Below are positions 8 through 34,837 of a stretch of DNA of 34,841 nt, one piece after another (positions within the stretch are counted from its first letter, which is position 1; each line of letters begins with the position of its first letter). The position numbers were made by a program, and so were the translations under genes. Under the pieces are notes generated by a model, which did no database searches, was not told where the DNA came from, and saw only the letters and a program-made list of their open reading frames with translations. This DNA comes from Folioceros fuciformis. Taxonomy: Eukaryota. The stretch is taken from the NCBI GenBank assembly GCA_049999805.1, contig JBNGIO010006249.1, positions 339,140-373,980 of the forward strand. Reading direction: 5' to 3'.

Positions 8-3000
8 GACGATGCAGAGACTGAAGGAGACTCAGCAGACGTATATGAAGGATATTGAATTTTGGGGTGTTGGGACGAGCGCTATTTTCCGAGTGTACCA
101 GAATGCGGATGGCCAGGTGACCAGAGTGGAGATAAATGCGGACGAGATCCTTCTGAGGAGTGGGCTGGAACCTGGTATGCCTCGGTTGGATGATTCGGAA
201 GGGAGGGTGGAAGCGGATTTGAAGCTTGCTAGGGCTAATGTGATAGCGAGGGAGATTGAGCAGGGGTTGAGGGAGCCTCCCGCAGGAAGCACTCTCTATG
301 AGTTCAAGAAGGAGAGGCCATGGGCAGGCACTGCTGGGGGTCGTTTCATAGGGGGCCTTGTGGGCGTTGTTGGTCAAGCTGGGGATATGGTGTTGAGGAC
401 TCCTCCTTTAGTTAGGCAAACCTTCTTCGGCTTGTTGTTTGTCTACTTGTTTTTGGTGGCATGGGGAGCCCGCGTACTTGTTGCTGACGAGCTGGAGAAA
501 GATCAGGTCGACAGTAAGGAAAAGGAATCCGATGATAGAATGATGAAGATGAGAGAAATGAAGGCTCGTGGCAAGGATGAAGAGGGCATGGAAGGGTTTA
601 TTTCAGGACAGACTGCAGCCAGGGTATCCTTTGAGCCATCTGTGGGGACGAGCCAGGGATCTGGGGATGCTGAGGGCTTGCATAGTTTCAGGCCCTTCGT
701 GGAGGGGGAGGAGTTTAAGAGGAAGGTGGCCCAAATTCAGGAAATGGCAAGGCAAGTAAGGCTGTCAGAGAAAGAGAGGTTAGAATCTAGAAAAGGGAAT
801 GAGCAAGCGGATGGAGGCAGTGATGGAGTGGGTGATGTCGTTGAAGGAGCTGTCGATGTTCACGCCAATCAATCGAAGGAGGTGGTGAGGAACGGGAGGC
901 TAAGTGTGTCTCCGGCTATGATCAACGGGAAGGCTGGTGGACCAACGAATCTGATGTCGGTGGATATTGAAAACTCCGACCTGGACGATACAGCAGATCT
1001 GGGTTAGCTCAATGTCCTCTTTTGCCATCTGACGTGAAACACATCTAATCTGATGCCAAAAGCCCTTGTAGCTGCACAGAGAGTCACTTTTAGTGCGATT
1101 GTCCTCGTTTTCAGAAAAGTCCTCGTTTGCTTGAGCATTCTTTGTCTCCATGATTAGTCCTGTCCTACTCGTCAGGAGCTGTGGTCAGTTTTCTCTGTCC
1201 TGGTGAAGTAGTATGTGTCTACTGCCCACATTTGAGCAAGTCAATCTATAATCCCATCTCGACATGGAGAGTGATCCTCTTTTCTTTTCGAGCTCCTGGA
1301 TGTCAATCCCTTGATTTCCTGCGTTGTGGGGAGTGGGTAATCAAGCCGAACAGGGGTTTTGGTTGGCGCAGGGCAAACTGTGAGTGAAGATGACCTGAGG
1401 ATTCTCGCTGATCGGCTGTATGACGTATATCGCTTTGGTGCAGAATCTTGGCGTGACTCCGGGAAGAGGGATCCAATTACACCCTTTGCTGAGGCAAGTT
1501 ACGTAGAGGGTTTGGTTCATGGCAGAGTGGGTGGACAAGGTCCTTCCTCTGGGTCAGATCAAACTTCCCAAGAAAGCGGGGAACATTCAAGACCGGCTGG
1601 TACTGGACAACCCTCCAATGGAGTAATTTATGGAAGCTTGAGCTCTGAAGATCTTGGAGAAAATCATGACCAAGTTGGGGACACAAATGAATCTGAGCCC
1701 ACTACGTCGTCTCCTAAAATGGGAATGGACAGCAAAGGTCGGAATCCGGTATCAGTTAGTCGTCTTCGAGCTGCAGCACGGGCATCTAGACCTAAGGTTA
1801 TTATCTCTGTTGAGGAAGCAAAAGCGAGACTTGCTGCTAAGAAGGCTAGTAGGCAAGATGATAGCTCGCCACCCAAAGGCTCAATCGGGGAGGAAGCTGG
1901 ACGTTCCAAACGGGTAAGCAGATCGGCAGCAGGCATTGATTCCTCCCAAGGATCTGGGAATAGAATCCCTTCTACTGAGGAGGAGTTCTCGGATGAGAGG
2001 ATACAGTCGGCAGACGGGGGTGAGGAAACAGGTGCAAGTGACAGGTTGTCCAAGTTGGAATCGGTGCTGGATACAGTGTTGGACAACATGGCCAAGACGC
2101 ATGACAGAATTGAGGCCTTGAAGAAAGCTGAGAGCTCCGAGGACCAGTCTGCAGATGGAAGTTCCTCTGGCACACCGGACCAGAAAGACGCTGTAGGACA
2201 GAGCCAGCAAGGAAAGCAGACTGCAGATGAGAAAGAGGAAGAAGAGTGGATGAGAGATGATGTTTTGAGGGAGATCGTCTATAAAGTTCAGGCCAACGAG
2301 AAAGCTGGGCGTCAGCCATTCGAAGGACTTGATTCTGATGCCGAAGCATTGTTCTTCAAAGGCTTAGAAAGGAAGTTTGAGAGAGAAGGTGAAGTGGTTA
2401 AGAAATGGATTGAAGAACGGGTCGAGAATTTGGACTACGGACAAGGTGAGAGTAGGGATAAATCACCGTGAAGCCAAAATGCGGTGCTGGAGTTTCAATA
2501 TATTGTTGTCAGCACTCAAGTTTGGAGGCCAAAGCTAAACCTGTCGTATGCTACCAGGGCCCATCAGTGTGGATGATCCACCAGAAAAATTCATGGCGAG
2601 ATGGAAGGACCCCAGTCATGGAAGGTCGGAGCTGCTGGAAAAGTTTACTGCAGAACGATCAAAGATACTCGAAGCTGCAAGGAAAGCTTCAGGTGTTGGA
2701 GCCTCGTCTGCACCCGTGAGCTCTTTGTCGCGGCCACAGCCCCTCAGTAATGTCCCAACCGTAGGGCTCTCAAACGAGGACAGCGACGCAGAGAGTGGCT
2801 TGAAAGATGTCGTCAGGGGCAACGAAAGAACAGGAAACCAAGCGGAAACCGCAAAGAAGGCCGTCGAGTCATCTGACCCTTTATCCAGTAGTGGGAAAGG
2901 CAGTGTTGTCACTGTGAGTGGAAAGCCGGAGAAGGACAGTGAGGAGAATTGGCAGCATACTAAGAAGTGGAGTCAGGAGCTGCAAAGGAAATATGATAGG

Positions 3001-3879
3001 GAGAAGAATCCTGAAACCAAGTCTTTAATGCAAGAGATTGGACAAGATTTGGATAGGTGGATAACTGAGGATGAAATTCATAGAGCACAGACGTTGCTGT
3101 CACAGGGAGTCGAAGGGCAGAAGCAGTATGCGAAGGAGGCTTTTGAAAAGACTAAAGAAAAGATCAACAAGCAGAGGGAAATGTTTGGTCAGGAGGCCAT
3201 GGTGGCCAAGTATTCGGAGTATAAACCACAGAAGGAAGATGAATTGTGGTGGCTTGATCTGCCCTTTGTTGTGGTAAGTTTGTCGACAAACCCTGTATCT
3301 CGTTATCCGAGATGAGGAAGGGCAACCTTGGCCTGGCCTCTGTAGTAACATGTGGGTTTGCAGTGCATAGGTATCCAAACAGACCGGAATGGTGAGACTG
3401 AAGAAGGCATGTACTCGCTAGACATGGCTCCAAGTATGCAAGGAACGGAGAAAAATTCGAAGCTACCGCACACGATTGCTTTCCAGGATCGCACCGATGC
3501 AACTCAGTTTCTGTACATGATGAGGTCTCAGTCAGAGGAGGCGGCTGCAGCAGAGCTTGTCCCAGTACCGCCAAAGGTAGGTGTTCCCGGACTGCCTAGC
3601 CTGTTGCCTGTTGAGAGACGCGTACACTCGGCTGACATGGATTTCTATTGACGGTTGCAGGAGCTCTACCAAGAGGCCAAAAGCGAAGGATTCAGGGTCA
3701 CAGTCTTGAGGAAGGGCCAACTGGAACTTACCCCGGGGCAAGCTTTTGAAGAGGTTGAACAAAGGATCATGCAAATCGGAAGCAGTGTGTACTGGGACGA
3801 CATCCTGCGAGAACGCTCGATTGACATGAACGCCGTTGTGGAAGAGGGGCTTGGTTTTGGCCGGCCTCCATCCACGTAA
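8..3879 (+). CDS. EMB1703: EMB1703-like (embryo defective 1703) protein, 5'-incomplete; exons 8-1002, 1372-2445, 2558-3273, 3364-3576, 3661-3879
   Basis: GT-AG introns join the long ORFs in phase. Recognised blocks: WMRDDVLREIVYKVQANEKAGRQPF, QEIGQDLDRWITEDEI, KEDELWWLDLPFVVCI, GMYSLDMA, HTIAFQD, GFRVTVLRKGQL, EEVEQRIMQIGS, ERSIDM. One predicted TM segment (FFGLLFVYLFLVAWGA). An alternative last exon (donor 3876, acceptor 3970, stop ~4098) is possible. Confidence 0.85.
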
Positions 3880-8710: not shown

Positions 8711-11700
8711 ATGGCGGCGTGGTTTCAAGCTGCAGCTGCGGTCGCTCCCGCCTGCGCTGCGGATTTTGGTCTGGCTGCTTCCTCCTCCTTGACAAGCGCG
8801 GGGGAAGCTTGCGGGAATGCGCCTCGCCGGGTGAGTCAGCGGCTGCGGAGCTGCATCCGGGCGGCGGAATTGAGCAGCCTCAGGCGCAGCTGCATAGCTA
8901 GACCAGCGCGTTGCCGCGGGCGGAATGGGAGCAATGGGGCGAGAGCTATGGGGGCCGCGCTTGCGGAGCCTCCAGAGCTGTCCAAAATTGAGTTGTGGCA
9001 GGAGGGGAAGAGGCTGCAGACTCAGACTTGCCCGGTGGTTCCTGACATCACAACCATTCGGTCCCTCGATTGGGACCGCAATCGCTTTGACATGTTTGTA
9101 CTCCAAACCTTGTCTCCTGTATTGTTTTCCCGCTCTCGTCCCTTTAAGGTGCGGCGTAGTCGGTTCTTCCTGGTGGAGTGTGCGTGAGGTAGCGGTCTTG
9201 AGTTTGTTCTGTTTGAATTGCAACTCTGACTGGACATGATGTTGTCTTTTGCGTGTCAGCGAGTTTGGCCTTCAGAATGGTACCACTTACAATTCCTTCA
9301 TCATCCAAGGCGAGAAGTTGGCTGTCATCGACGCGTCGCATGAGAAGTTTAAGGACCTCTACCTCAAGGCTTTGAATAATCAAATCAATCCCGCGGCCAT
9401 ACAGTACATTATTGCGAACCATACTGAGCCGGACCACAGTGGATTGATACCTGAGCTGTTGAACTTGGCACCTAATGCAACAGTTGTCGGGTCACGAGTT
9501 TGTATTCAGTTCCTGGCGAACCTTGTTCTGCGGCCATTCAAGAGCCTGATTGTGAAGGTGCGCCCATGACAGGTCTGGAGAAGAAGCGAGTGCTCGCTTT
9601 TAGTGTTGACTAACTTCGTCTGTGATGGCTGGATAGGGCGGAGATACCTTGGATCTTGGTAAAGGACATGTGTTGGAGTTTGTGATGGCGCCCAATCTTC
9701 ACTGGCCCGACACTATGTTCACTCTTGACAGGGGAACTGGCGTTCTGTTCACTTGTGATGCATTTGGCATGCATTACTGTTCCGAAGCTGTAAGTCATGA
9801 GAGCTTTTTATTTGCTTGCAGGATGTTGTGTGGCATGTGGGCTTGTTTGCCCAGCGCTCTCCCTTTTACGTCATTTCTTCAAACCCTGCAAGTCTGTGGC
9901 CTGAGTCCCTACCCTAACTATCTGCAGGTGTATGATGAGGACCTGATCACGATTGAGCCACACTACCGCTTCTATTACGATTGTTTGATGAAGCCTAATG
10001 CACGCTCTGCCATTACGGCGCTAAAGAGGATAAAAGACATGGATTTCAGCCTCATAGCCACAGGGCATGGTCCCCTTCTTCGATACAATGTGGCTGAGTT
10101 GATCAATAAGTACGACAGCTGGAGCAAGCAGGCTCTCGAAAAGCAATTGGCGTCTGCTGCTGTTCTCTATGTGTCTGACTATGGCTACAGTGACCGTCTG
10201 TCTCAGGTTCAACTCCTATGCTGTCACTGTATGTCTAGTTGTTCAAATTCCTTGAGCAGGGCTGTCCTTGAGTTTCGGAAGGTTTCGTTTCATCGCTTGA
10301 ACAATTAAGGTCCGACATTTTACTGTTTGTCGCAATAGGCCCTTGCTAGGGGCTTGACTAAAACCAACACAGGAGTGGAGATGATGGACTTGAAGGCAGC
10401 AGATCCGCAGGAGTTGATTGAATGTGTAGGCAAAAGTGGAGCCGTCGTCATCTTGGCACCTCCGAGTTCTGGTGCTGCCCATGCTGCTGTAAATATTTTG
10501 TATGCAGCTGTGAAGCCAAAGCAGGTGAGGACCATTGTATATACCCTTGTTGCTCCGATTGGTGGGATCTTGTTTGCGTTTTCCACTGGAGACTGCGATT
10601 CCACAGTCCAAGGGTGCTTCATCGGAGCACCCTGCTTATTTGATGGCTTGTGCACTGATAATCAGCCAGTTGTTATCGCTGAGAGTTTTGGCGGTGACGA
10701 CGAACCTGTGGATACTATTTTACGTCGCTTTGTGGAGCTCGGCATCAACTCTCCGCTGCCTCCTCTAAGGGTGAAAGAGAGCCCCACCGAAGCTACGTGA
10801 GTTTCGTCAAATTATTGACGGCAAAAACGTTTTTGATATTTGTAGGGTGGGCTCCTGCCTGTGGTGCAGCTACTTAGTTTTGCGGTTTGCCTGTAAGCTG
10901 GCAGGTATCAGCAGTTTGAAGAGGCTGGCACAGATTTGGGACAGCTGCTCTCACAAAAGAAGGCGATTGAATTGAAGAAAGCAAGTATGCCCTTGAATGT
11001 TGCCAAAGCTATAGCCAGAGTTTCTGGAGGGCTGTATGTTGTCACAGCTCAAAAAGGAGATTCGAAGGGTGCCATGGTTGCGTCGTGGGTGTCTCAGGTG
11101 GGCCAGTCAAGCTGGAAAATCCTTTTCAAAGTCCTGGTAGGGGTCTGTGTCTGTGGATGCTGACCCGCGCCATCTGGTTTGGCTCTTCTTCCAGGCTAGC
11201 TTTAAGCCCCTGGGGCTCACAATCGCTGTTGCGAAGGATCGTGCCATTGAATCACTCATGCAGGTTAGTCCATCCGCTTTACAAACCGTGAACTTGTACT
11301 AGTGCCAACTTGCAGAGCTCACATGATGTCAGTCATGAGCAGGTAGGAGACACTTTCGTGTTAAACTGCCTGGAGGAGGGTAATTACCAAAATCTGCTGA
11401 AACATTTCCTCAAACGATTCCCCCCTGGAGGTACGTCCCCGTTTGCAGGTCGCTCAATCATTATTTACTGTCATGGGGCGGGGTCTTAGGTTTAGCCAAA
11501 TTTCTTGATTTCTCTTTCGAAACCAGGCAGATGCTGTGGCAGCGGCTGCTCAATAGTGTCTCTGACCCAGCATGCTTTGTGCAGCGGACCGCTTCGAAGG
11601 AGTGGAGTGCACAGTGGCAACTAACGGATCACCTATCTTGCTGGATGCCTTGGCTTACATCGAGTGTAAAGTTGTGAGTAGAATGGAGATCTCGGACCAC

Positions 11701-13002: not shown

Positions 13003-16000
13003 CTCCCGCTGAGTTCAAGATGTCCCTTTAGGCAGCAGGTGTCGGCTCATTGAGTGGCATGAAATGTCTTGTTAGTTGGGTCTTCATCAATCCCGCTTAG
13101 TTCAAGATGTCCCTTTAGGCAGCATTGAGTGTCGGCTCACTGAGTGGTTGTTGGTTGGGTCTTCATCACTCCCGCTCAGTTCAAGATGTCCCTTCATGCA
13201 GCAGGTGTCGGCTCATTGAGTGGCATGAGATGTCTTGTTGGTTGGGTCTTCATCACTCCCGCTCAGTTCAAGCCATCTCAAAAATGCTGCTTACTTGCAA
13301 TGTTCACTAATCCTAGGAATATAGTTAGTGATTCATGGCGGATCCTAGGTAGTGACTTCATGAGTAAGTCAACAAGGTTAGATTCTATGGCGACGTAAAC
13401 CATTTTAACAATACTCTTGGCTACCAGCTGCCTGATAAAATGGGAAGCTACTTTGATATGCCTAGTTCTAGCATGAAATCTGCCACCCTCTATAAAAGAG
13501 ATTGCAACTGTGGTATCACAACGTAGGATGGTGGGATCAAACTTATCATAGCCAAGGTCTTTTAAGATCTGCCTTGAATGAATAACCTCCTTTCCAGCTT
13601 TTGTCAGTGCTCCATACTCGCTCTCTACACTAGACAACGAAATGGTAGCAAGCTTCTTGCTTGACCATGAGACTGCTGAGCCACCGAGGGTAAATATGTA
13701 GGCTACAACACTCAGTCGGGAATTAGGATCGGATGCCCAATCCGCATCTGCCCAACCCTCAAAGTTGAGCTTGTCTTCAGTGGATCTCTTGTAAGTAATT
13801 CCAGAGTGAATGGTGCCCTTCAAGTACTGGTAGATCATCTTTACACACATCTAGTGTGCCCTGCCAGGGTTAGGCATAAATTGTGCAACAGCAGACGTGG
13901 CATAAGAGATGTCATAACATGTCCAACCATGGAGCTAGATGAGGCTACCAACAACACTCAGGTATGGCACCTTGGCCATATCCTCCTTTTCAACTTTGGT
14001 AGTGGGGCAATCATCCGTTATGAGCTTCACATTTTAGTTGGAAGCGGAATCAAAGTAGGACAAGCATTTGATAACTTAAACTTGTCCAAAATTTTGAGGA
14101 TGTACTTGGACTGAAGAAGAGTCAACGTACCTACTTCTTTGTGGCATTGAATCTGCACATCAAGGCAAAATTCCAAGGTCTAACATCTCTCATTTGAACT
14201 TGGCAACAAGCATCTCCTTTACGTCTACAAGTAGCTTTTCTGGATCATTGGTGAACATGATGCAATCATCGACATATAGGGCCAGTGGCAGGAATTTTTC
14301 TCCCATTCACAGCAAGTATAAGTTCTAGTCTGCTAAGGTCTTGATAAAGCCAAATTGGGTGAGGCGACCATCAATCAACATATAAAATTCGGTTGGTGCT
14401 TGCTTAAGGCCGTATAGCCCCTTGAGTAGCTTGCAAACCCAAGTAGGTCTCTTGGGATCCACATACATTGGTGGTTGCTCCATATAAATTTCCTCCTTTA
14501 GTGTGGCATAGAGGAAGGCTGTTGAATGTCGAGTTAATGCACATCAAGGTCATGCTCAGCCGCTATTGCCAAGAGGAATCTAACAGATTGAGGGCCACCA
14601 CAGGTGCATAGATATTATCTCCATAGTCGAGGCCAGGCCTTTGACTGTATCTCTTGATCACGAGCCGTGCTTTGAGTCTTTCAGTGGCTCCATTGGACTT
14701 CAGCTTACGTTTGAATGTCCACTTACATTAAATTGCCTTGCGACCAAGAGGGAGTGGGGTGAGCACCCAAGTCTTCAACTCAATTAGGGAGTCATATTCT
14801 TGCTGGATAGCCTTCATCCATCCTTCCTTGTCAGGCAATGCAAGTGCTTCTTCAAGAGCTGTTGGTTCAAGAACCTGAGTTGCACTTTTTACCGTGAGGT
14901 TAACACAAGTGTCGATCTCAGTACTTGTCTCTACATGTGCATTCTCCGTTTTAGGAGCAATAGGGACCATATCTGCTGGAATAGGTTGTTGTGTGGCAGG
15001 ATCAAGAACATAGTAGTCATCAAGATAAGCAAGACGACGGCGAGCTCTTGTGGATTGGCACCTATCAGGCATGGCAGCTTGAGGAACTGGGTCTTGACTT
15101 GAATCGGCGGCTAGAGGGAGCAATGGACCAATTGGAGCAGTAGGTGGGTGCCCTGGTAGCTGCACAGCTTGGGGAGTTGGGGTAGCTTCGTGCAACGGCG
15201 AAGGTTTAGTGATGGGAATCTCAATTACAACCATTTGCTCCTCCTCATTGCGAAAGGGGTCGTCGAGGTTAGGATAGAAGCCAATAATACTCCCACTGCC
15301 TCCTGGAGCATCAAGATGCTTGCGGAAGTAGATGCTTCGAGAAATGGTGATTTGGTGTGAGGTTGGGTGGACAAGTTTGTAGCCTTTCACGCCATGAATG
15401 TAACCAACAAATATTAGCTTCTGTGCTCGAGCGTCAAATTTTCCAGTCTTGGGGTTGTGAAGTTGAGAGCGCTTCTCCTTCAGAATCCAAGAGTAGGTAT
15501 CAACCCCAAACATTCAAAGATGAGTAAGAGGGGGCATGTGTTCGGTCCAAGCCTCAAAGGAGGTTTGTGTCGGAAGAGCAGAGGTAGGCAGTTGGTTTAG
15601 CAAATGTGTTGGAACAGAGACAGCCTCGGCCCAATACCCACGTGACAAGGCGACATGTGAGAGCATGGCCTTGACCATCTCCTGAAGCCTTCATTTGCAG
15701 TTCTCTACAACACCATTTTGCACATGGGTATGGGACGGTGACTTGTCGAGTGATGCCTCATTCTATAAGAGAAGGGGTGAATTCACCAGAGAAGAACTCA
15801 CCTCCTCCATCCAAGCATACGCACTTAAGCTTATAGCCAGTCTGCAGTTCAACCATTGCGTGGAACTCCTTAAACTTGGTGAAGGATTCACTCTTGAGCT
15901 GGAGAAAGTAGGTGTGGATCATACGAGACTTGTCGTCATTAACAGGCATTAAATAAGAAGCTCCTCCAAACGAATGTGTGGACATGGGTCCACAAAGATC

Positions 16001-17589
16001 AATGTGCACCAACTCAAGGAGCTCGATGGCACGGTGAGAGGAAGTACGGGGTATGGCACTTCCTTACTTTTTCCTAGTAGACAGCTTTCACAGAAGAGGG
16101 AGTCACTGAATTCAGGAAGGGGTTCGGCATAAAAGCTGGCTAGCTTGCATTTCTTTTATCCGTTCAAGCTGGGGTGACCTAAGTGTAGGTGCCAAAGCTT
16201 GGCTATCTCTACCTTAGTTAAAGTCCGAGCTAGGTGAGCTGATCCTAGAAGTGAGGACTTCCAAAAGTTAGAGCCTGTCTTCCTTTGATCCATGGAGGTG
16301 ACATCAACGGGATTGTTATAGGGACAAATCTCACATGTTTGAGCTTTGAAGTGAATCTCATATTGTTGGTTGTCCATCAGAGTGCTCACAGATACCAGGT
16401 TCTTGCTAATTGTAGGCACATGGAGCACATCTAAGAGAGATATCATACCTCCAATTCTGCACTGAAGAATAACTGTGCTTGTGCCAATTAATTTTGCGGA
16501 CCTATTGTCAGCCACATAAATCGATCCTCCACAATGTAGGATTCAATAGGTGCTAAAACAATTGCGGTTTTTGCAGACTGAGCTAACGCACCATTGTTCA
16601 AGTACTAGGAAGAGCAACGTCCAAAGGTGGTGGTCAACGTGATGATCAAAATTGTAGGCGGTCTTTGTACAAGGTGGGCATTTGGGGGACCTTGTCTCCT
16701 TGGTTCACCTGCTTGCTTACTATGGCACTCTCGTTCATATTGCCCTGGCTTCCTGCACTAGTTACAATTCCCCTTACGATGAGGGTTAGCAAGGCCTGAC
16801 TGGGAAGAACCTTCCCCTCCCTTCCTACTTTGCCAGTTCTTGTTTCACATCTGTCTTTGTCCGTTGGGCCGTGAGGTGAAGGGAGCTTGCACTAGGGGTT
16901 CCCTCCTGGAGGAACCCATAGCAGAGTCCTCATCGATTATTGTAGTGATGAACTCCAAGAGGGTCATAAGTTCTTCTAGCTTGTGCTTCTTCGCCTGTGC
17001 AGACTGCTTCATGAGGCCGTTCTGGGTTGCGACAAATGTGCACCAGCTTGCCGGCAGGGTCATCAACAGGGCTATTACCACCTGATCCTCTATTAAGACG
17101 GTCCCGCAGGAGGCCAGTCTTGCTCTCAAAAGTGCGGAAGGTGCTAAGATGTGCCTGGATGCTTTCCCCGTCCATACATTTAAGGTTGTGGAAGTTCCTT
17201 ACGGCAGTGGTAGAGTGCTGAGCATCAGTGGCTTCAAACATTTGTTTGAAGCGGTCACAGATGGCTTGTGCCGTCAAGGCACCAAAGGTATGATGAACCA
17301 TATCTTTATCAAGCGTGGCAATTAATAGATTAAGGGATCTTCTGTCGGATTTGATCCATTGATCATAGTTTGGGGTTCCTGAAGCAGGGCAAGGCACCGA
17401 TCCATTGACTATTGTCCATAGGTCTGCATCCTCAAGGTGTCCCTACATCCGGGTGGCTTAGACGTCGTAGTCTACCCCCGTGAATCTATCTCTTTCCTTT
17501 ATTTCGATGCGGAGGTTAGCAAAGTATTAGGCAATAGGCTTTATAGCGGCAGCACCACCACCAACGATAGCACCTGCACCATCTGCAAC

Positions 17590-23800: not shown

Positions 23801-24646
23801 CGCCTGGATTCCGCATGCAGGTGACTTATGTACATCGGTTTGCGACGAGCGATTTGGAAACAAACAATGAGTGCATACACCAGGGATGGAAAGTATGAAA
23901 ATGATGAGCCGTCAAGCTGAGCCAAACCACTAGTCTGCTCGTTTCACGACCCATTCAGTATGTTACCAGAAGTGAAATGTGACGACATTAGAAAATACCG
24001 TCCCTCCAAAAATGCAAGCGAACGCATCACACGACAGGAAAACACCGCTCGTGATATCAATATTCTCCGTAAATACGAAAAAAGGAATTTCCTATTTTAC
24101 TATAGAATACCGATATACAGTATACGCTTCCGTATTTTTAGCCTAATGGACATGACGGTATGTGTGCGGCTGTCAGGGCATCCCATCTGGCCATCACCAG
24201 ACAAAGATTCCTTTTCTTTCTAACACATCGAAAACTTCACGTTTTTTTCTCTGATACGATCTCATTATGATTTTTTGGTTTCGAGGACACATGAAACCCT
24301 AAAATACGTATGTATACGAGGGATACTATTCGTATACAACGAAAACCTAATCATGTGCCGTATATCCGTATCGGTATTCGGTAAACCATGTCCTTCACAT
24401 TGAGTTGAGATTTGGCAAGATACTCACGAACATACGCAGTAAAATGTGTCCAATAAAATTTCGAATAATCCGACGTCTGTCATCCAATTTCTTACACCTA
24501 CCTTCGTAGGTACATTGGCATTGTCGTGATCGCATTCGAGCTGCCGGATCGGCCTGATCGTAAGGAGCCCCGTGTGGTGTGGGCAAATACGTTCGTGGAC
24601 ATTCTGGAATAGTCTGGTCTTTGCACAGCGGGCAGGATCTGGATCG

Positions 24647-27331
24647 ATGGCTACTGTATGGCAACGGGATCCTGGGTTTAGGACCCAACAACTTGGTGTG
24701 TGTAAAGGGATTCTACCAGGAGTTCCTCTTCACATCATTGTAGGGAGTCAGCCGGTGGCAACCAAATTTTCCAGGTGCAGTAGTGAAAGGAGCTCAGCAC
24801 TTCCAGTTTCTAGAGAAGGTGTGGCTGTGGACGGGGTTGCCAGCAATGGTCGTTGCCAGGAGCAGGAGCACTTGTGGCAGCAGTTTTTTCTGGAGCCTAC
24901 CATGTGGTGGGACAATAGACGAGATAAGAAGAGCCCCCGTTCGCCTGATTTCCGGCGGAAGGGGTCCGGCGAGGTGCTGTGGTTAAACAGCATGTTTAAG
25001 CCAGCGTGGGTTGATGGAGAGCTCGTTTCCTTGGATATGCAGATGGATCATGGGTCCCCTCCACCCCAATCCAGCTCTCCGAGTGAGCCTGGTAGGCGTG
25101 CAGGATGGAACATGGGTTTGACAACCGTGAGCGCATTATGTGAGCAGGGGAAGCTTTCTGAGGCTGTTGGAGTCCTGGAATCTGTGGGGCAGACGGATCC
25201 TGCTGTTTCCCAGACTGTGTTTTGCACTGTGCTGAAATTGTGTACAGCTAAGAAGGATCTGGTTGTGGGGCGACGAGTTCATGAACTTATTGTCAAACTT
25301 GGGTACGAGTCGAATGCTTACCTGGGGAATCATATTCTGCGCATGTATGCAGGTGGAGGTAGGCTAGAGGAGGCCATGGATGTGTTCACCAGGGTAGGCA
25401 AACCCGATGTTATCACGTGGGGTTCTATCATCTCTGCGCATGCTAAGCATGGGAAGCCTAAAGAGGCTATACAACTGTACCATGAGATGTGTAGGTCAGG
25501 AGTGCAGGCGAATGGTCATGTCTTTGTAGCTGCCCTTCAAGCCTGTACATTTGCTGCGGACTTGGAGTCCGGCAGGAAAGTGCACTTCGACGTGTTGCAG
25601 GGTGGCAATCCCACGAACTTGTTTGTTGACAACTGCCTGGTGGACATGTACGCAAAGTGTGGCGCACTGAAAGATGCACGCCAAGTCTTTGACAGCATGG
25701 CCACAAAGGACGTGGTAACATGGAATGCCCTGATATCTGGTTATATAAAATGTGGTGAGCTGAAAATGTCACACCACATTTTTGACAGCATGAAGGTGAA
25801 GAATGTGGTGACATGGACCGCTCTGATTTCGGGATATTCACAGCAAGGATTCGGCCATGAAGCGCTTGATGTGTATGAACAAATGGAACAAGAAGGCCAC
25901 ATTTTGGCTAACCATGTGACTTTTGCTTGCCTTCTGAAGGCCTGTGCAAGCACTGGTGCCTTGCAGAAGGGCAGGCAGCTACACTCACTGATTGTGGAAA
26001 GAGGACTGTTGGATAACGTGGTGTTGGGCAACTGCTTGGTGGACATGTATGCGAAATGTGGCAAACTCGAAGATGCACGCCAGGTGTTTGACAACATGAC
26101 CACAAAGGATGTGGTAACATGGACAACCCTGATTGCTGGCTATGCACAGCAAGGACTCGGCCAAGAGGCGCTTGTCGTGTATGGACAAATGGGGGAGGCG
26201 GGTCTCATGTTGGCTGACGACGTTACTTTGGCTTGCCTTCTGAAGGCCTGTGGGAGCAGCGGTGCCTTACAGAAGGGCAGGGAGCTGCACTCACAGATTG
26301 TGGGAAGAGGACTGCTGGATGACAGAGTGTTGGGCAACTGCCTGGTGGACATGTATGCAAAATGCGGTCAACCCGAAGAGGCACGCCAGGTTTTTGACAG
26401 CATGAACACAAAGGATGTGGTGACATGGACTGCCCTGATATCCGGGTATGGTGCTTGTGATGATGGTCACAGGGCACTAGCCTGTTTTGAGGAGATGTTA
26501 AGTGCTGGCATTCAGCCTGATGGTGCTACTTTTACTTGTATTCTAGTGGCATGCAGTCATGAGGGACTGGTCCACGAGGGTCGCAAGCACTTTGATTCAA
26601 TGGCTGAACAGCATGGCATTAACCCTTCTCTTGAGCATTACAATTGCATGATTGATCTTTTTGGGCGTGCAGGGCAATTAGATGAGGCAGAGAAGATGCT
26701 ACTATCATGCGGGGACCAATGTAATGTTGTGGGATTGACGACTTTGCTGAATGCCTGCAAAAGTCATGGAAATATAGAGAAGGCCATGTGGTGTTTTGAA
26801 AGCATTGTTAGGCTGGACCCCCAGTGGGCGCCTGCCTATGTGCTCATGGCCAATGCCTATGCAGATGCAGGTAGGTGGACGGATGTAGAGAGGGTTGAAA
26901 CACAGAGAAGGCTAGCTGGAGCTAACAAGAAACCTGCAGTGGCGACCATTGAGGTGAATCAGGAGGTACATAAATTTATGGTTGGGGAAAGGAGAGAGGA
27001 TATTGCTCTCAAGGTAGAGAGCACGAATGCACGTGTGAAGCAGGAAGGGGGCCACGTACCTCACACAAAGCTGGTGTTGAAGCCAGTGCATGAGGAGGAG
27101 AAGGAAGATGCGCTTTGTGGGCATGCTGAGAAGCTAGCACTGGCGTTTGGTCTCTTGAACACTCCGAGTGGCACACCTCTGGTGGTAACGAAGAATTTAC
27201 GCATGTGCAGTGACTGCCACAGTTCCACAGAGATCATGTCCAGGCTTGAAGAGAGAGACATTGTTGTAAGGGATGGGTATCGTGTGCATCGATTCACAGC
27301 CGGGTCTTGCAGTTGTAAGGGTCGACCATGA
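24647..27331 (+). CDS. PLS-class PPR RNA-editing factor (894 aa): N-terminal OSB-type PDF motif, 15 P/L/S repeats plus one degenerate P-like repeat, E1-E2, and a DYW:KP (GRP-type) deaminase-like domain
   Basis: Uninterrupted ORF from ATG 24647. Array L1-S1-P1-L1-S1-SS-P1-L1-S1-P1-L1-S1-P2-L2-S2-E1-E2. Deaminase motifs KKPAVATIEV, LCGHAEKLALAFGL, KNLRMCSDCH and HRFTAGSCSCKGRP-stop. Probable 5'UTR intron at 24560-24628. Confidence 0.96.
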   Translation: MATVWQRDPGFRTQQLGVCKGILPGVPLHIIVGSQPVATKFSRCSSERSSALPVSREGVAVDGVASNGRCQEQEHLWQQFFLEPTMWWDNRRDKKSPRSPDFRRKGSGEVLWLNSMFKPAWVDGELVSLDMQMDHGSPPPQSSSPSEPGRRAGWNMGLTTVSALCEQGKLSEAVGVLESVGQTDPAVSQTVFCTVLKLCTAKKDLVVGRRVHELIVKLGYESNAYLGNHILRMYAGGGRLEEAMDVFTRVGKPDVITWGSIISAHAKHGKPKEAIQLYHEMCRSGVQANGHVFVAALQACTFAADLESGRKVHFDVLQGGNPTNLFVDNCLVDMYAKCGALKDARQVFDSMATKDVVTWNALISGYIKCGELKMSHHIFDSMKVKNVVTWTALISGYSQQGFGHEALDVYEQMEQEGHILANHVTFACLLKACASTGALQKGRQLHSLIVERGLLDNVVLGNCLVDMYAKCGKLEDARQVFDNMTTKDVVTWTTLIAGYAQQGLGQEALVVYGQMGEAGLMLADDVTLACLLKACGSSGALQKGRELHSQIVGRGLLDDRVLGNCLVDMYAKCGQPEEARQVFDSMNTKDVVTWTALISGYGACDDGHRALACFEEMLSAGIQPDGATFTCILVACSHEGLVHEGRKHFDSMAEQHGINPSLEHYNCMIDLFGRAGQLDEAEKMLLSCGDQCNVVGLTTLLNACKSHGNIEKAMWCFESIVRLDPQWAPAYVLMANAYADAGRWTDVERVETQRRLAGANKKPAVATIEVNQEVHKFMVGERREDIALKVESTNARVKQEGGHVPHTKLVLKPVHEEEKEDALCGHAEKLALAFGLLNTPSGTPLVVTKNLRMCSDCHSSTEIMSRLEERDIVVRDGYRVHRFTAGSCSCKGRP

Positions 27332-28381
27332 GAACAAGCCAGTATGCACTCCGCAACGAATTCGCTTGTTGTGCCCTCTCAACGTTAAGACTGCAGTAGT
27401 TCTGTCTTCCCATAGATCAGAGGCTAAGTGAGTGGTGGATCGTTCCCCCTGTGTCACCTGACACTACGTGGACGAGTGGCTGGAAGAGAAACTTGCTGCA
27501 GAGATGCATGTGTTTTGCTGCACCAAACGAACCTAACTCTCGCTCCACTTGAGGACGATGAATATCTACCTCGTTGCAGCAGAAAGAGTCGCTGGTCGTT
27601 TGTCACCAATTTTTGTCTCCCGATTTGGAGCAGTGGCGGGCAAGGCCACCGCCCCACAGCCTGTCATTGTAGATTTGCGCAGCCTTGCAATCTAATTTCG
27701 TTTAAGCGTGGAGGGAGGCATTGACTTGGAGGAGGGTAATCCAGGATGCTGGATCCCTCAAGGTACTGCAACTGTGGATGTAAGACTGAAGGAGCTCCTC
27801 TGAGGATCCTCCAATGGAGACTGGTGAGGATCACATTGCAGAGTCCTTTGGCGATCGTGGAGACTTCAGAAGATCAGCAATTTGTATCTTAAATGGTGGA
27901 CAGCTTCAAGAGTCGACGAAGTTCTTTGCTTCCGGCGTGAGTTCCTGAAGTTTGAGTCGCTAACACGTTCTAGAACACGACTTCAGATTCTTACAATAAA
28001 GCTGCATGTCCTCTTCTTATTAAAACAGGTTATATATATAGCAATATTCATATGCTGGAGGGGTTTATGAAAAACTAGTGGAGGAAGACTATATATGCAT
28101 CACAATATGGGATATATTAGTATTGTTTGAATATGAGATATTTGAAGTGAGAGGACAATGATTCAAATTAAGATCCTTGCAAGCTGGATTTTATTATCTT
28201 ATTTTAAGTACTAGGTGAAAACATACTTTGTCACACTAAAGGGTTTAGGGTTTAGTGTTTACTGTTTAGGGTCTAGCATAGTCCATAGATGTCCTTCCAT
28301 ATATCAAATTATAGCTTCTTTTCTTCTTTCTCCTTTTTTTTTCCAAGGAAACCATTTTAATCTTAGACGTGGAACTTGGAA

Positions 28382-30698: not shown

Positions 30699-32560
30699 TT
30701 ATCTGCCCCACGGGCAGGAGTACTCCCATTGGTCATTGTGCCGGAGGAAGCCTGCAAGTATCCACTCTCTCCGCCTGAACTTAGAGTGAGTGGACGTTCG
30801 AATACTTTCCGCGACCACAAGTACATGCTCCCAGATGCGCCATAGCAAAGCTTTCATAGCGGCCGGCTCACTCCCACCATATACCATTGCTGTCCAGTTT
30901 TGCCACAAGGAAAACAATAATAGGGACCAAACCACTCCCCACCATTGGAATTTGAGAAGTGGCCTCCCTACCTGTCTGTTCAGCCCAAATAAGGCAACTT
31001 GCTCAGTAACCAAGCTGGCTCTCTCCAGGAGAAGTCTCTGTAGCCACCTACCGACTTCGTTCCAAATACCCTGCGCATACTCGCAATGAAAGAAAATATG
31101 TTGGCTTTTATGCAGAGCGCCAACGTTGCATAGCCTGCAGCATTCCTCCCCCATGGCCACCAATAGCCCGTCCCAACGGTCTGCGTTAGGCAAGCAAGCT
31201 TGGAAAAAACACCAGATGGTAACCCTCACCTTAGGGGGGATCCCTAGGGTCGACCACAAGAGTTTGATCGTTTCCTTTTGCCGACGCTGGGAGAGCTGCA
31301 ACCCAGGAGCTAGTTGACATCGCCGAGGACCTTTTTGCGCTCGCACCAATCGAATGTACACGGTTGCCGACGGAAAATTGAAGAGTGACTTCCAAGTGGC
31401 CTGCTTACTTCTTGCGCTCCCAGGCCACATATATAGGTCGGGGCGTATCACTAACTCCCAATTCTCCTTCAAGCGAAACCATCATCCTACAGGACGCTGT
31501 TGCATGATCTGTTTCCGGTTGCCTTGCTCTTCCTGGGTAAGCCAAAAACCGGCTCGTCTAGCCTTGTACAGTATGGTAATCCCTCTGAGGGTGGCTCCAC
31601 CCATCGCGCCTTCAGCTCTATCTTTTTCCTCCAGCAGCCCTTCTATGTTTAGCGTCCTATAAGATAGGGTTCCTTCCTCATCTGTCCTTGATGTCACTAG
31701 CACCGCTCTGTCAAAATCTGGGAGGGGCTCGTCCTGCTCCTGGTCGGAGCCACCTGCTCTATTGTCCACGGGGTAAGCTCCCCACATATTGATGCCAACC
31801 TAAGCTTCCTGTAGCAGCGTTAGCTTCACATCCTCGGCCATCCCTTCCTGGAGCCAGGCAAGCATAAGTCTAACGTGTCGAACAGGGATCCCAAACTCTT
31901 CCCACGTCTCCTCCACTGATTTCCAACCAACCTCTCTATGGTTCCATAGGTGTCCGAGCTGCACAGAGCCGCTCCTGCTAGCGGAACCAAAGATTGAGAC
32001 TGGTTCACTCGGGGAAGGAAGTTCTGAGACCACAGCCCTTAAAACCTTGGAGAGGGAGCCCTAGCACATCGTCCCTATTCCTGGGCTTGGCATAGATAAG
32101 AAAGGTTTTCACCTCCAGAAAACTGCGCCAGATTGAAGCAAAAAGAGGGGAGCAATTCCTGGTATCCAACAGGGGCCTATCCGCCAGGAGGTTGTCCATA
32201 GACCTCCGCTCCCGGGCGACCGCTTGAGAAAGCTGCAAGTGTTGGGTTAACCAGCTTTTCCAAGGGTATCCCGTTGGTCCAGCTGCCTTCAGCACCCATT
32301 ACGCATGTACGATCTTCACTTTGCTTGTGGGGTCAACCAACCCTAGACCCCCCAAGCGCTTGCACTGAATAATATGATGCCACGCCACCTGATGGGAAGA
32401 AGAGAGCAGCTCCTTAGACTTGCTCCATAGGAAGTTGGAAATTACTTGTTGCAATTGTCTCAGATCCGCCTTGTTAAGAGCCTCTTTCCCAAAGATTGGC
32501 ATTTGCATGTGTGGAAAGCATCCAATAAGACTAGATCTGTGAGTCTGGAAGCTCTTGGAG
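30699..32560 (-). mobile_element. Degenerate L1-type LINE ORF2 3' portion (post-RT region and zf-RVT)
   Basis: ISNFLWSK...VAWHHIIQCKRLGGLGLVD and LLWSTLGIPPKVRVTIW...LP...CRLC...HIFFHCEYAQGIW (zf-RVT). Broken by stops and frameshifts. No RT core seen. Confidence 0.88.
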
Positions 32561-33934: not shown

Positions 33935-34837
33935 CTAGGTCAATTTTGAACGCTTGGGATTTAACGGAGATTGTACTTCGTCTTCTAGTGTATGCTTCAA
34001 ATTTGGGTGAGATTGAAAATTCAAACTTTCTTGTTGCATTGCGGGTTCTTCATCAACTACGTATTGTTGATGATATTGTTGTTGTTGAGGAGGTTGTACT
34101 CCGTCTTCTAGTGTATGCTTCAAATTTGGCTGAGATTGAAAATTCAAACTTTGTTGATGCATTGCGGGTGTTTTATCAACTACATATTGTTGATGATATT
34201 GTTGTTGTTGAGGATCAAGCTCTTGAAGCTGAGTTTGTTGGACTCGAGGGTTAACATAAGAGTGATTGAAGTTCACTTGTGTGTCCCATTCATTGCCATG
34301 AAATTGTTGTTGTTGTTGTTGTTGAGGATCAAGCTCTTGAAGCTGAGTTTGCTGGACTCGAGGGTTAGCATAAGAGTGATTAAAGTTCACCTGTTTGTCC
34401 CATTTATTGCCATGAAATTGTTGTTGTTGGTGATATGGATTGTTCAACATATATTGATATTGATTTACTTCATGTCTCCACAGTTGTTGTTGAGGATTCA
34501 CATAATTAGGGTAGATTAATCCATTGTTCCACCCATAATTCTGTAACTGATGCATATACTCCATCCTTGGATATGGTTGAACCAAATAGACCTCTGGCAT
34601 GTCATAAACCCTTTGCTGCCTACCACGAGCCTCTTGTTGCATCGCATAATACTTATGTTGCATCTCATAATTCTCTTGATGCATCTCATTAACCTGCTTT
34701 TGCATTGTATGAGCTTGTGGAATCCTTGCATGATCTTGTTGAACCCCCAAATCTTCTGGGTATTCAATTTTAGGGACTTGTTCAATTCCTCGAACTTGAT
34801 GTCCTTGCGGATAATTTTGAGGCATGTCAAATGCCAT
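33935..34837 (-). CDS. Gln/Asn/His/Tyr-rich low-complexity protein with internal tandem duplications; may be 5'-incomplete
   Basis: 300-aa open frame in AT-rich DNA with a 114-nt unit x2 and a 123-nt unit x2, both in frame, and a basic C-terminus PKRSK. No family recognised. Confidence 0.45.
   Translation of the reverse strand: MAFDMPQNYPQGHQVRGIEQVPKIEYPEDLGVQQDHARIPQAHTMQKQVNEMHQENYEMQHKYYAMQQEARGRQQRVYDMPEVYLVQPYPRMEYMHQLQNYGWNNGLIYPNYVNPQQQLWRHEVNQYQYMLNNPYHQQQQFHGNKWDKQVNFNHSYANPRVQQTQLQELDPQQQQQQQFHGNEWDTQVNFNHSYVNPRVQQTQLQELDPQQQQYHQQYVVDKTPAMHQQSLNFQSQPNLKHTLEDGVQPPQQQQYHQQYVVDEEPAMQQESLNFQSHPNLKHTLEDEVQSPLNPKRSKLT

Follow-up and report, generated by a model that had tools for sequence, protein, structure and literature searches.

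The genome of Folioceros fuciformis contains a gene for a protein of three parts, in which an OSB-type PDF domain, an array of pentatricopeptide repeats (PPR) and a deaminase domain of the DYW:KP type follow one another in a single reading frame. The gene lies in a stretch of 34,841 nucleotides (contig JBNGIO010006249.1 of assembly GCA_049999805.1, positions 339,140 to 373,980 of the forward strand; hereafter the window, in whose own numbering all coordinates are given), where it occupies 24647-27331 of the plus strand as a complete, intronless coding sequence of 894 codons and a stop. Our results show that this three-part architecture is real and, judged by its domains and their order, the window gene is a member of a PDF-PPR family of lycophytes, ferns, Sphagnum and F. 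fuciformis.

Architecture of the PDF-PPR-DYW:KP protein

The frame opens with an ATG at 24647 and closes with the stop codon at 27329-27331, giving a protein of 894 amino acids, and the nearest in-frame stop upstream is found at 24527. Its extent was established from the list of open reading frames (ORFs), the sequence itself, the Pfam matches for PPR, E_motif and DYW_deaminase and a full-length AlphaFold2 (AF2) model. Inside this single frame, the translation of 24860-25024 (plus strand) is, letter for letter, the stretch of 55 residues that an earlier note on this DNA had quoted as a PDF motif. The first 71 residues of the protein (24647-24859, plus strand) form a presequence with a net charge of +4, 11 serine or threonine residues and 4 acidic residues, and this charge and composition, together with the low confidence of the model in this region, point to a putative organelle targeting peptide. 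The PDF domain comes next, at residues 72-126 as it had been quoted and at residues 72-130 by our profile (24860-25036, plus strand), whose match ends 12 nucleotides further downstream. It is followed by a flexible linker rich in proline and serine (residues 131-154; 25037-25108, plus strand), which carries GSPPPQSSSPSEPG at residues 136-149. The PLS-class PPR array with its E motifs takes up residues ~152-757 (25100-26917, plus strand), for which Pfam reports PPR at 6.7e-89, PPR_2 at 3.7e-83 and E_motif at 7.5e-12, above its cut-off. With about ten PPR repeats in tandem, E motifs behind them and 36 helices in the model, this portion has the build of a PLS-class editing factor, and the KP-type deaminase domain (residues 760-894; 26924-27328, plus strand) closes the protein.

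Structure prediction agrees with this division. When modeled alone with AF2, the PDF motif reaches a predicted local distance difference test (pLDDT) score of 91.4 and consists of a helix, a small sheet and a second helix. The full-length model, calculated from a 35-row alignment, has a mean pLDDT of 81.4; the PDF domain, the 36 PPR helices between residues 152 and 757 (mostly above 85) and the DYW domain are all confident, and values below 50 fall at residues 1-67, 132-154 and 803-824. The prediction fits a protein in which a disordered presequence leads to the folded PDF domain, and a flexible linker to the PPR superhelix and the enzyme behind it. A Foldseek search of solved structures with the PDF domain model returned no significant match.

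By homology, the segment is a true OSB-type PDF motif, and we take this homology to be real because of its hidden Markov model (HMM) and phmmer matches, its identity to an OSB1-named protein and its conserved residues. The HMM, which has 58 positions and was built from 397 motif copies of 150 database proteins only, was searched against the six-frame translation of the 34.8-kb window and matched it once, at 24860-25036, over the full model (1-58) with 75.7 bits and an E value of 5.6e-25, the runner-up reaching 0.1 bits (E 0.23). In a phmmer search of 1.84 billion representative proteins with the 65-residue stretch coded by 24845-25039, 665 proteins passed E<=1e-3, and 180 and 20 of them also passed the stricter limits of 1e-10 and 1e-30; many have 2-13 tandem matches. 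Among the best 150 of these, the SSB family PF00436 is present in 49 (21 of 69 and 28 of 81), and jackhmmer showed the OB-like N-terminal region of P0041, recorded as "protein OSB1, mitochondrial-like [Populus nigra]", to be common to 82. With each of the two motifs of P0041 the window stretch shares 47% identity (E 5e-18 and 2e-14), and many of the matches listed from a later profile search are named OSB1, OSB2, OSB3 or "organellar single-stranded DNA binding protein 3". These scores and identities uphold the claim, made in the earlier note, of an OSB-type PDF motif placed between presequence and PPR array in the same frame.

Conservation of single residues points the same way. The window motif has every one of the ten residues (W, D, R, K, P, D, F, L, P and W) that are invariant in an alignment with 38 single-motif proteins. 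Of the 18 positions conserved to at least 80% in 393 OSB-linked copies it keeps 17, the sole change being from lysine to arginine. The segment has the length of about 50 residues, the Pro-Asp-Phe signature and the pattern W..WWDNR..K..PDFKHK..LWL..P.WV of a PDF motif, and the consensus given in the earlier note agrees with the one that we derived from the data. A Pfam scan of the 55-residue segment returned no family at all; Pfam holds no PDF model, and the OSB proteins in the profile search carry either no family or PF00436 only. A word-based protein search with the segment alone, in an index evidently without close relatives, gave 1 match among 23 candidates of near length and 0 among 3 shorter ones. 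Two further resemblances were rejected. The likeness of 24956-25024 (plus strand; LWL..PAWVDG.L, residues 38-60 of the 65-residue stretch) to the N-terminus of CP29 and to other chlorophyll a-b binding proteins, which came from a sequence search of solved structures, has a best E value of 0.098 and is attributed to chance, and the phage gp49-like clusters of the ESM Atlas reached a best score of 0.84, below the threshold of 0.9.

At the opposite end of the protein, Pfam finds the DYW_deaminase family PF14432 at 1.9e-33. According to the available part of PMC9478123, DYW:KP domains are distinguished from DYW:PG domains by the PG box, by an active site with a conserved alanine and by the last triplet, and proteins that carry them are confined to hornworts, lycophytes and ferns. 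In an alignment to the solved canonical DYW domains 9kfx, 7w86 and 7o4e, the window protein has KPAVAT in place of their EPGCSW and HAE in place of their HSE, and its C-terminal triplet is GRP. The KP mark (KPAVA) lies at 26930-26944, the active-site mark (HAEKLA) at 27122-27139 and the zinc site (CSDCH) at 27206-27220, all on the plus strand; HAE and CSDCH line up with the zinc ligands of the three solved domains, and both HxE and CxxC are present. By three sequence marks, namely KP in place of PG, the HAE active site and a non-DYW ending, the C-terminal domain is of KP type, in line with the label DYW:KP in the earlier note, and U-to-C activity is predicted for it.

The window protein is not an OSB protein and shares the PDF domain only, because an OB fold is found neither in the protein nor in the window. 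Pfam reports no SSB family on the window protein, and so the central SSB-like OB fold that defines the OSB family is missing from it. When all 150 database matches were compared with the whole window by tblastn, 0 of 362 alignments fell outside the gene (24500-27400), and no OB fold was found nearby.

The PDF-PPR family and its origin

The architecture is not an isolated one, and the fusion turned out to be a family. We viewed the best 150 of 665 proteins from phmmer and the best 120 of 1079 from a profile search, in both of which multi-motif proteins rank first and single-motif KP proteins may sit lower, and the counts of family members below refer to these best matches. PLS-type PPR proteins with an N-terminal PDF motif account for 10 of the best 150 phmmer matches, and jackhmmer found the OB region of P0041 in 0 of these 10. 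The second profile, made of the window motif and 12 PPR-linked motifs and used to score 8000 candidates, found 1079 proteins at E<=1e-3; PPR families are present in 30 of the best 120, which represent 29 distinct loci of Diphasiastrum complanatum and one of Adiantum, and 4 of them have the DYW family as well. Taking both searches, the arrangement of PDF and PPR recurs in at least 39 other proteins and at least 7 species, and all of the PDF-PPR proteins among the matches listed belong to non-seed plants. They come from Diphasiastrum complanatum (P0151, P0149 and P0102, for example), Selaginella moellendorffii (P0118), Adiantum capillus-veneris (P0079 and P0044), Ceratopteris richardii (P0129), Pteridium aquilinum (P0093) and Sphagnum compactum (P0127), and P0002, with three motifs, has the same combination. 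Their annotation is hypothetical or generic PPR only. The Diphasiastrum members among the matches listed have 2-3 N-terminal motifs, the first of which starts anywhere from residue 5 to residue 140.

A DYW domain is present in five of the 39 proteins (P0127, P0193, P0216, P0250 and P0261), all five end in DYW and none is of KP type; P0127, the one in which the active site was read, has EPGRTW and HSE. In the remaining proteins, either the sequence is cut or nothing follows the E region. The special tie between PDF motif and reverse editing that the earlier note implied is therefore the least supported part of it, since those relatives among the matches listed that carry a DYW domain have the canonical ending.

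The origin of the fusion was approached with a FastTree phylogeny of 657 motif copies over 58 columns, in which 77 copies, the window's included, are PPR-linked. Two clades without any OSB-linked copy take in 76 of the 77. The larger one, of 73 copies, holds 69 PPR-linked copies at a support of 0.47, and the window copy is in a clade of 9 (support 0.92), whose other members are P0002, two short fragments and PPR proteins of ferns. A sister relation between the two clades is not resolved, and the ancestor that they share also takes in 75 OSB-linked copies. The tree is compatible with an old fusion, or two of them, and later expansion, and 58 columns cannot choose between one and two.

The searches also brought up PDF motifs in other settings. 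P0004, P0005, P0011 and P0015 consist entirely or almost entirely of PDF repeats, with 9-11 copies each, and no OB region was detected in them; the same holds for P0008, with 5 copies, whose name assigns it to the green alga Sanguina aurantia. P0003 of Kingdonia uniflora (1160 amino acids) has 13 PDF matches. PDF motifs were seen as well in a kinesin-motor protein and in an 'interactor of constitutive active ROPs 2' protein (P0039 of Coptis chinensis and P0048 of Striga hermonthica), which may be merged gene models.

Contigs of four public runs (X1, X2, X3 and X7) were compared with the gene at 90% likeness; that the runs are RNA is a guess, and so their contigs are uninformative on transcription. 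Short contigs on the gene (24600-27420) number 2952 in X1, 22536 in X2, 12507 in X3 and 13308 in X7, a depth which shows that closely similar PPR genes form a very large family in those organisms. Exact X1 contigs cover 24976-25163, 25135-25267, 25417-25660, 26038-26169 and 27310-27800, and X1 may be the sample from which the window was taken. Cover is lacking at 23934-24603, a gap to which we attach no meaning. Over the motif, distinct contigs with a variant letter were counted at 24935 (24 in X1, 49 in X2, 36 in X3 and 39 in X7), at 24958 (13, 53, 45 and 45, in the same order) and at 25006 (15, 46, 43 and 31); by codon, these three listed variants are two synonymous third-position changes and one change from proline to serine, too few to weigh. 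Loose contig ends past 25016 run on into sequence that resembles the window's linker. The variants and loose ends hint that many close paralogues share the PDF-linker-PPR arrangement in the organisms of these runs.

Possible roles of the PDF domain

We consider it fairly probable that the PDF domain is a retained, tethered, sequence-independent single-strand binder that aids the PPR array in engaging its target. Because a disordered presequence (residues 1-67) precedes it and a disordered linker of 24 residues follows it in the model, the domain is expected to stay on the mature organellar protein as an independently folded module. In the mechanism that we propose, the PPR array would read the RNA sequence. 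N-terminal PPR repeats sit towards the 5' end of the RNA that they bind and, since the PDF domain is at the N-terminal end of the array, the nearest single strand would be the RNA just upstream of the footprint. The PDF module would grip single-stranded nucleic acid beside the 5' end of the footprint, regardless of its sequence, and this grip would strengthen binding or prevent the region from folding, after which the C-terminal DYW:KP domain would act on the target uridine. Such a role would be shared by the whole PDF-PPR family rather than tied to U-to-C editing.

Several points weigh against this proposal. Retention after import, nucleic-acid binding by the window copy and help to editing are steps that we infer, and the literature yielded no experiment on any PDF-PPR protein. 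Two family members, P0118 of Selaginella and P0044 of Adiantum, have a PDF motif that begins at residue 4 and thus lack space for a presequence; either their gene models are truncated at the 5' end or part of the family is not organellar. Reports on OSB proteins, as far as the available parts of PMC6963530, PMC4166229 and PMC6451138 go, locate their binding of single-stranded DNA (ssDNA) in the PDF motif and describe a preference of OSB1 and OSB2 for ssDNA over double-stranded DNA or RNA, a preference that fits a tether to DNA at least as well as a clamp on RNA. In addition, nothing in the sequence indicates a shift towards RNA, because the consensus of PPR-linked motifs is nearly that of OSB-linked ones.

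The main rival explanation is built on these last two points. In a nucleoid tether, the PDF domain would keep the OSB-like binding of ssDNA, be it in transcription bubbles, R-loops or replication intermediates, the editing factor would thereby sit on the organelle nucleoid, and editing would be co-transcriptional; we regard this as possible but doubtful. Apart from the ssDNA preference of OSB motifs, it is favored by the OSB consensus being almost wholly kept in PPR-linked motifs, the window included with its 17 of 18 positions, and by the tandem motifs of the Diphasiastrum members, two or three in number as in OSB3-type proteins. However, a domain on a flexible linker of 24 residues beside an RNA-bound PPR array would have RNA as its nearest single strand. 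By sequence, the tether and the RNA clamp are indistinguishable. A more ambitious form of the same idea, in which PDF-PPR proteins would be an ancient class of non-seed-plant editors docked on nucleoid ssDNA, coupling C-to-U and U-to-C editing alike to transcription, with the PDF domain, taken over from the machinery of organelle DNA maintenance, acting in cis as MORF proteins do in trans in seed plants, seems unlikely to us. The domain could instead serve protein-protein contact or self-association, recruiting OSB or other PDF proteins or oligomerizing the editor, with no binding of nucleic acid. OSB2 is reported as a tetramer in the available part of the OSB literature, and proteins made of PDF repeats only exist, with up to 13 copies; yet the same body of work, as far as available, puts ssDNA binding in the motif itself, and the conserved residues are mainly tryptophan, phenylalanine, arginine and lysine, which suit base stacking and backbone contacts, so that an association module is quite improbable.

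That the PDF domain is a specific helper of U-to-C editing, recruited because the DYW:KP reaction needs it, is very unlikely in our judgment. The window protein does combine the two domains, but the five DYW-bearing relatives among the matches listed, where multi-motif proteins rank first, all end in DYW, with HSE at the active site of P0127, and the fern members from Adiantum and Ceratopteris have no DYW domain even though their lineage has KP proteins. Least credible of all is that the motif has no role in the mature protein, being removed with the targeting peptide, spliced out, or part of a dead retrocopy or an assembly chimera. There are 91 in-frame GT..AG pairs that could in principle span the motif, and two joints between contig pieces do skip parts of it, 24871>25002 in X3 and 24879>25245 in X2 and X7. 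Each of these joints is a single contig with sides of 21-22 letters and non-canonical ends, and the 130 or 365 nucleotides that they skip are not multiples of three, for which reasons we rejected them as introns and read them as mosaics of paralogues; an exact X1 contig, on the other hand, covers 24976-25163 without a gap. The frame of 894 codons is intact with all catalytic marks in place, the motif keeps every invariant residue and folds confidently in the AF2 model, and the arrangement recurs in at least 39 proteins of at least 7 species, all of which speaks against this reading. A retained single-strand binder that helps the PPR array to engage its target is the explanation that we favor.

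Surroundings of the gene and comparison with known systems

Elsewhere in the window, remnants of a copia-type long terminal repeat (LTR) retrotransposon were found at 13278-17397 (minus strand), with frames broken into several ORFs, among them a gag ORF at 16933-17397 (minus strand; Retrotran_gag_2, 1.2e-10) and an SH3_retrovirus ORF at 14731-15513 (minus strand; 8.3e-14). An ORF at 30702-31472 (minus strand) has the zf-RVT domain of reverse transcriptases (1.3e-11) and is probably a fragment of a non-LTR retroelement. Three long ORFs of 331, 370 and 255 amino acids at 12-3312 (plus strand) are acidic, rich in serine and without a Pfam family, and resemble exons of one gene. The ORF at 9649-10305 (plus strand) has a weak match, at 7e-05 and thus short of the curated cut-off, to the ODP family beta-lactamase fold and is possibly an exon for a metallo-beta-lactamase fold, and a repetitive, glutamine-rich ORF of 300 amino acids with no Pfam family runs off the end of the window at 33938-34837 (minus strand).

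Both halves of the window protein are well known, but their combination is apparently undescribed. With OSB proteins it shares the plant-specific PDF motif of ~58 residues behind a presequence; however, OSB proteins have an SSB-like OB fold followed by 1-5 C-terminal PDF motifs, whereas in the window protein the motif is N-terminal and precedes a PPR array and a deaminase. With PPR-DYW:KP proteins, both the natural candidates and the designer U-to-C editors KP1-KP7, it has in common the PLS array, the E motifs and the KP/HAE/non-DYW end, as far as the available parts of PMC9478123 and PMC11845758 describe them. In the designer proteins the PLS array comes first, and the available part of PMC9478123 describes no N-terminal accessory domain; the window protein adds the PDF domain and its linker. 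The closest likeness is to the PDF-PPR proteins of the database (for example P0193, P0216, P0250 and P0261 of Diphasiastrum, P0127, P0079 and P0118), which have the same order of presequence, 1-3 PDF motifs, short linker and PLS array, but differ in that none of those among the matches listed is of KP type and that the lycophyte members have 2-3 motifs, compared with one in the window. RRM-PPR fusions and the MORF and ORRM cofactors likewise join a PPR reader, in cis or in trans, to a nucleic-acid-binding or helper domain (available part of PMC13386178), although their fold and origin are unlike those of the PDF domain.

Our literature searches, with supplements and subscription papers outside their scope, found no description of a PDF-PPR fusion; the term "PDF motif" occurred together with PPR only in an unrelated context and never with DYW. 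Nothing relevant was found on OSB proteins in connection with the PLS class, lycophytes or Diphasiastrum, nor on N-terminal extensions or novel domains in PPR proteins, and papers that mention PDF domains or OSB-like proteins do not, to judge by their titles and the openings of their abstracts, deal with PPR proteins. PPR or pentatricopeptide has 0 occurrences in the available part of a 2026 study of OSB evolution (PMC13393729), OSB or PDF has 0 in the available main text of a 2026 kingdom-wide study of editing factors and domain fusions (PMC13386178), and PPR has 0 in the Diphasiastrum genome paper. Because Pfam holds no PDF model, surveys based on domain libraries cannot see the fusion, and this blindness may explain the silence of the recent kingdom-wide studies of editing factors and OSB proteins.

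MORF proteins are not known outside seed plants. The PDF domain would be a new accessory domain on PPR editing factors in lineages that are not known to have MORF helpers, and it becomes directly testable what helps the PPR-DYW proteins of non-seed plants. As a small, autonomous and confidently folding putative single-strand binder, the domain might also be attached to designer PPR editors, among them those for U-to-C editing that derive from KP consensus sequences. In evolutionary terms, the fusion of an OSB-type motif to PPR proteins links RNA editing with organelle DNA maintenance.

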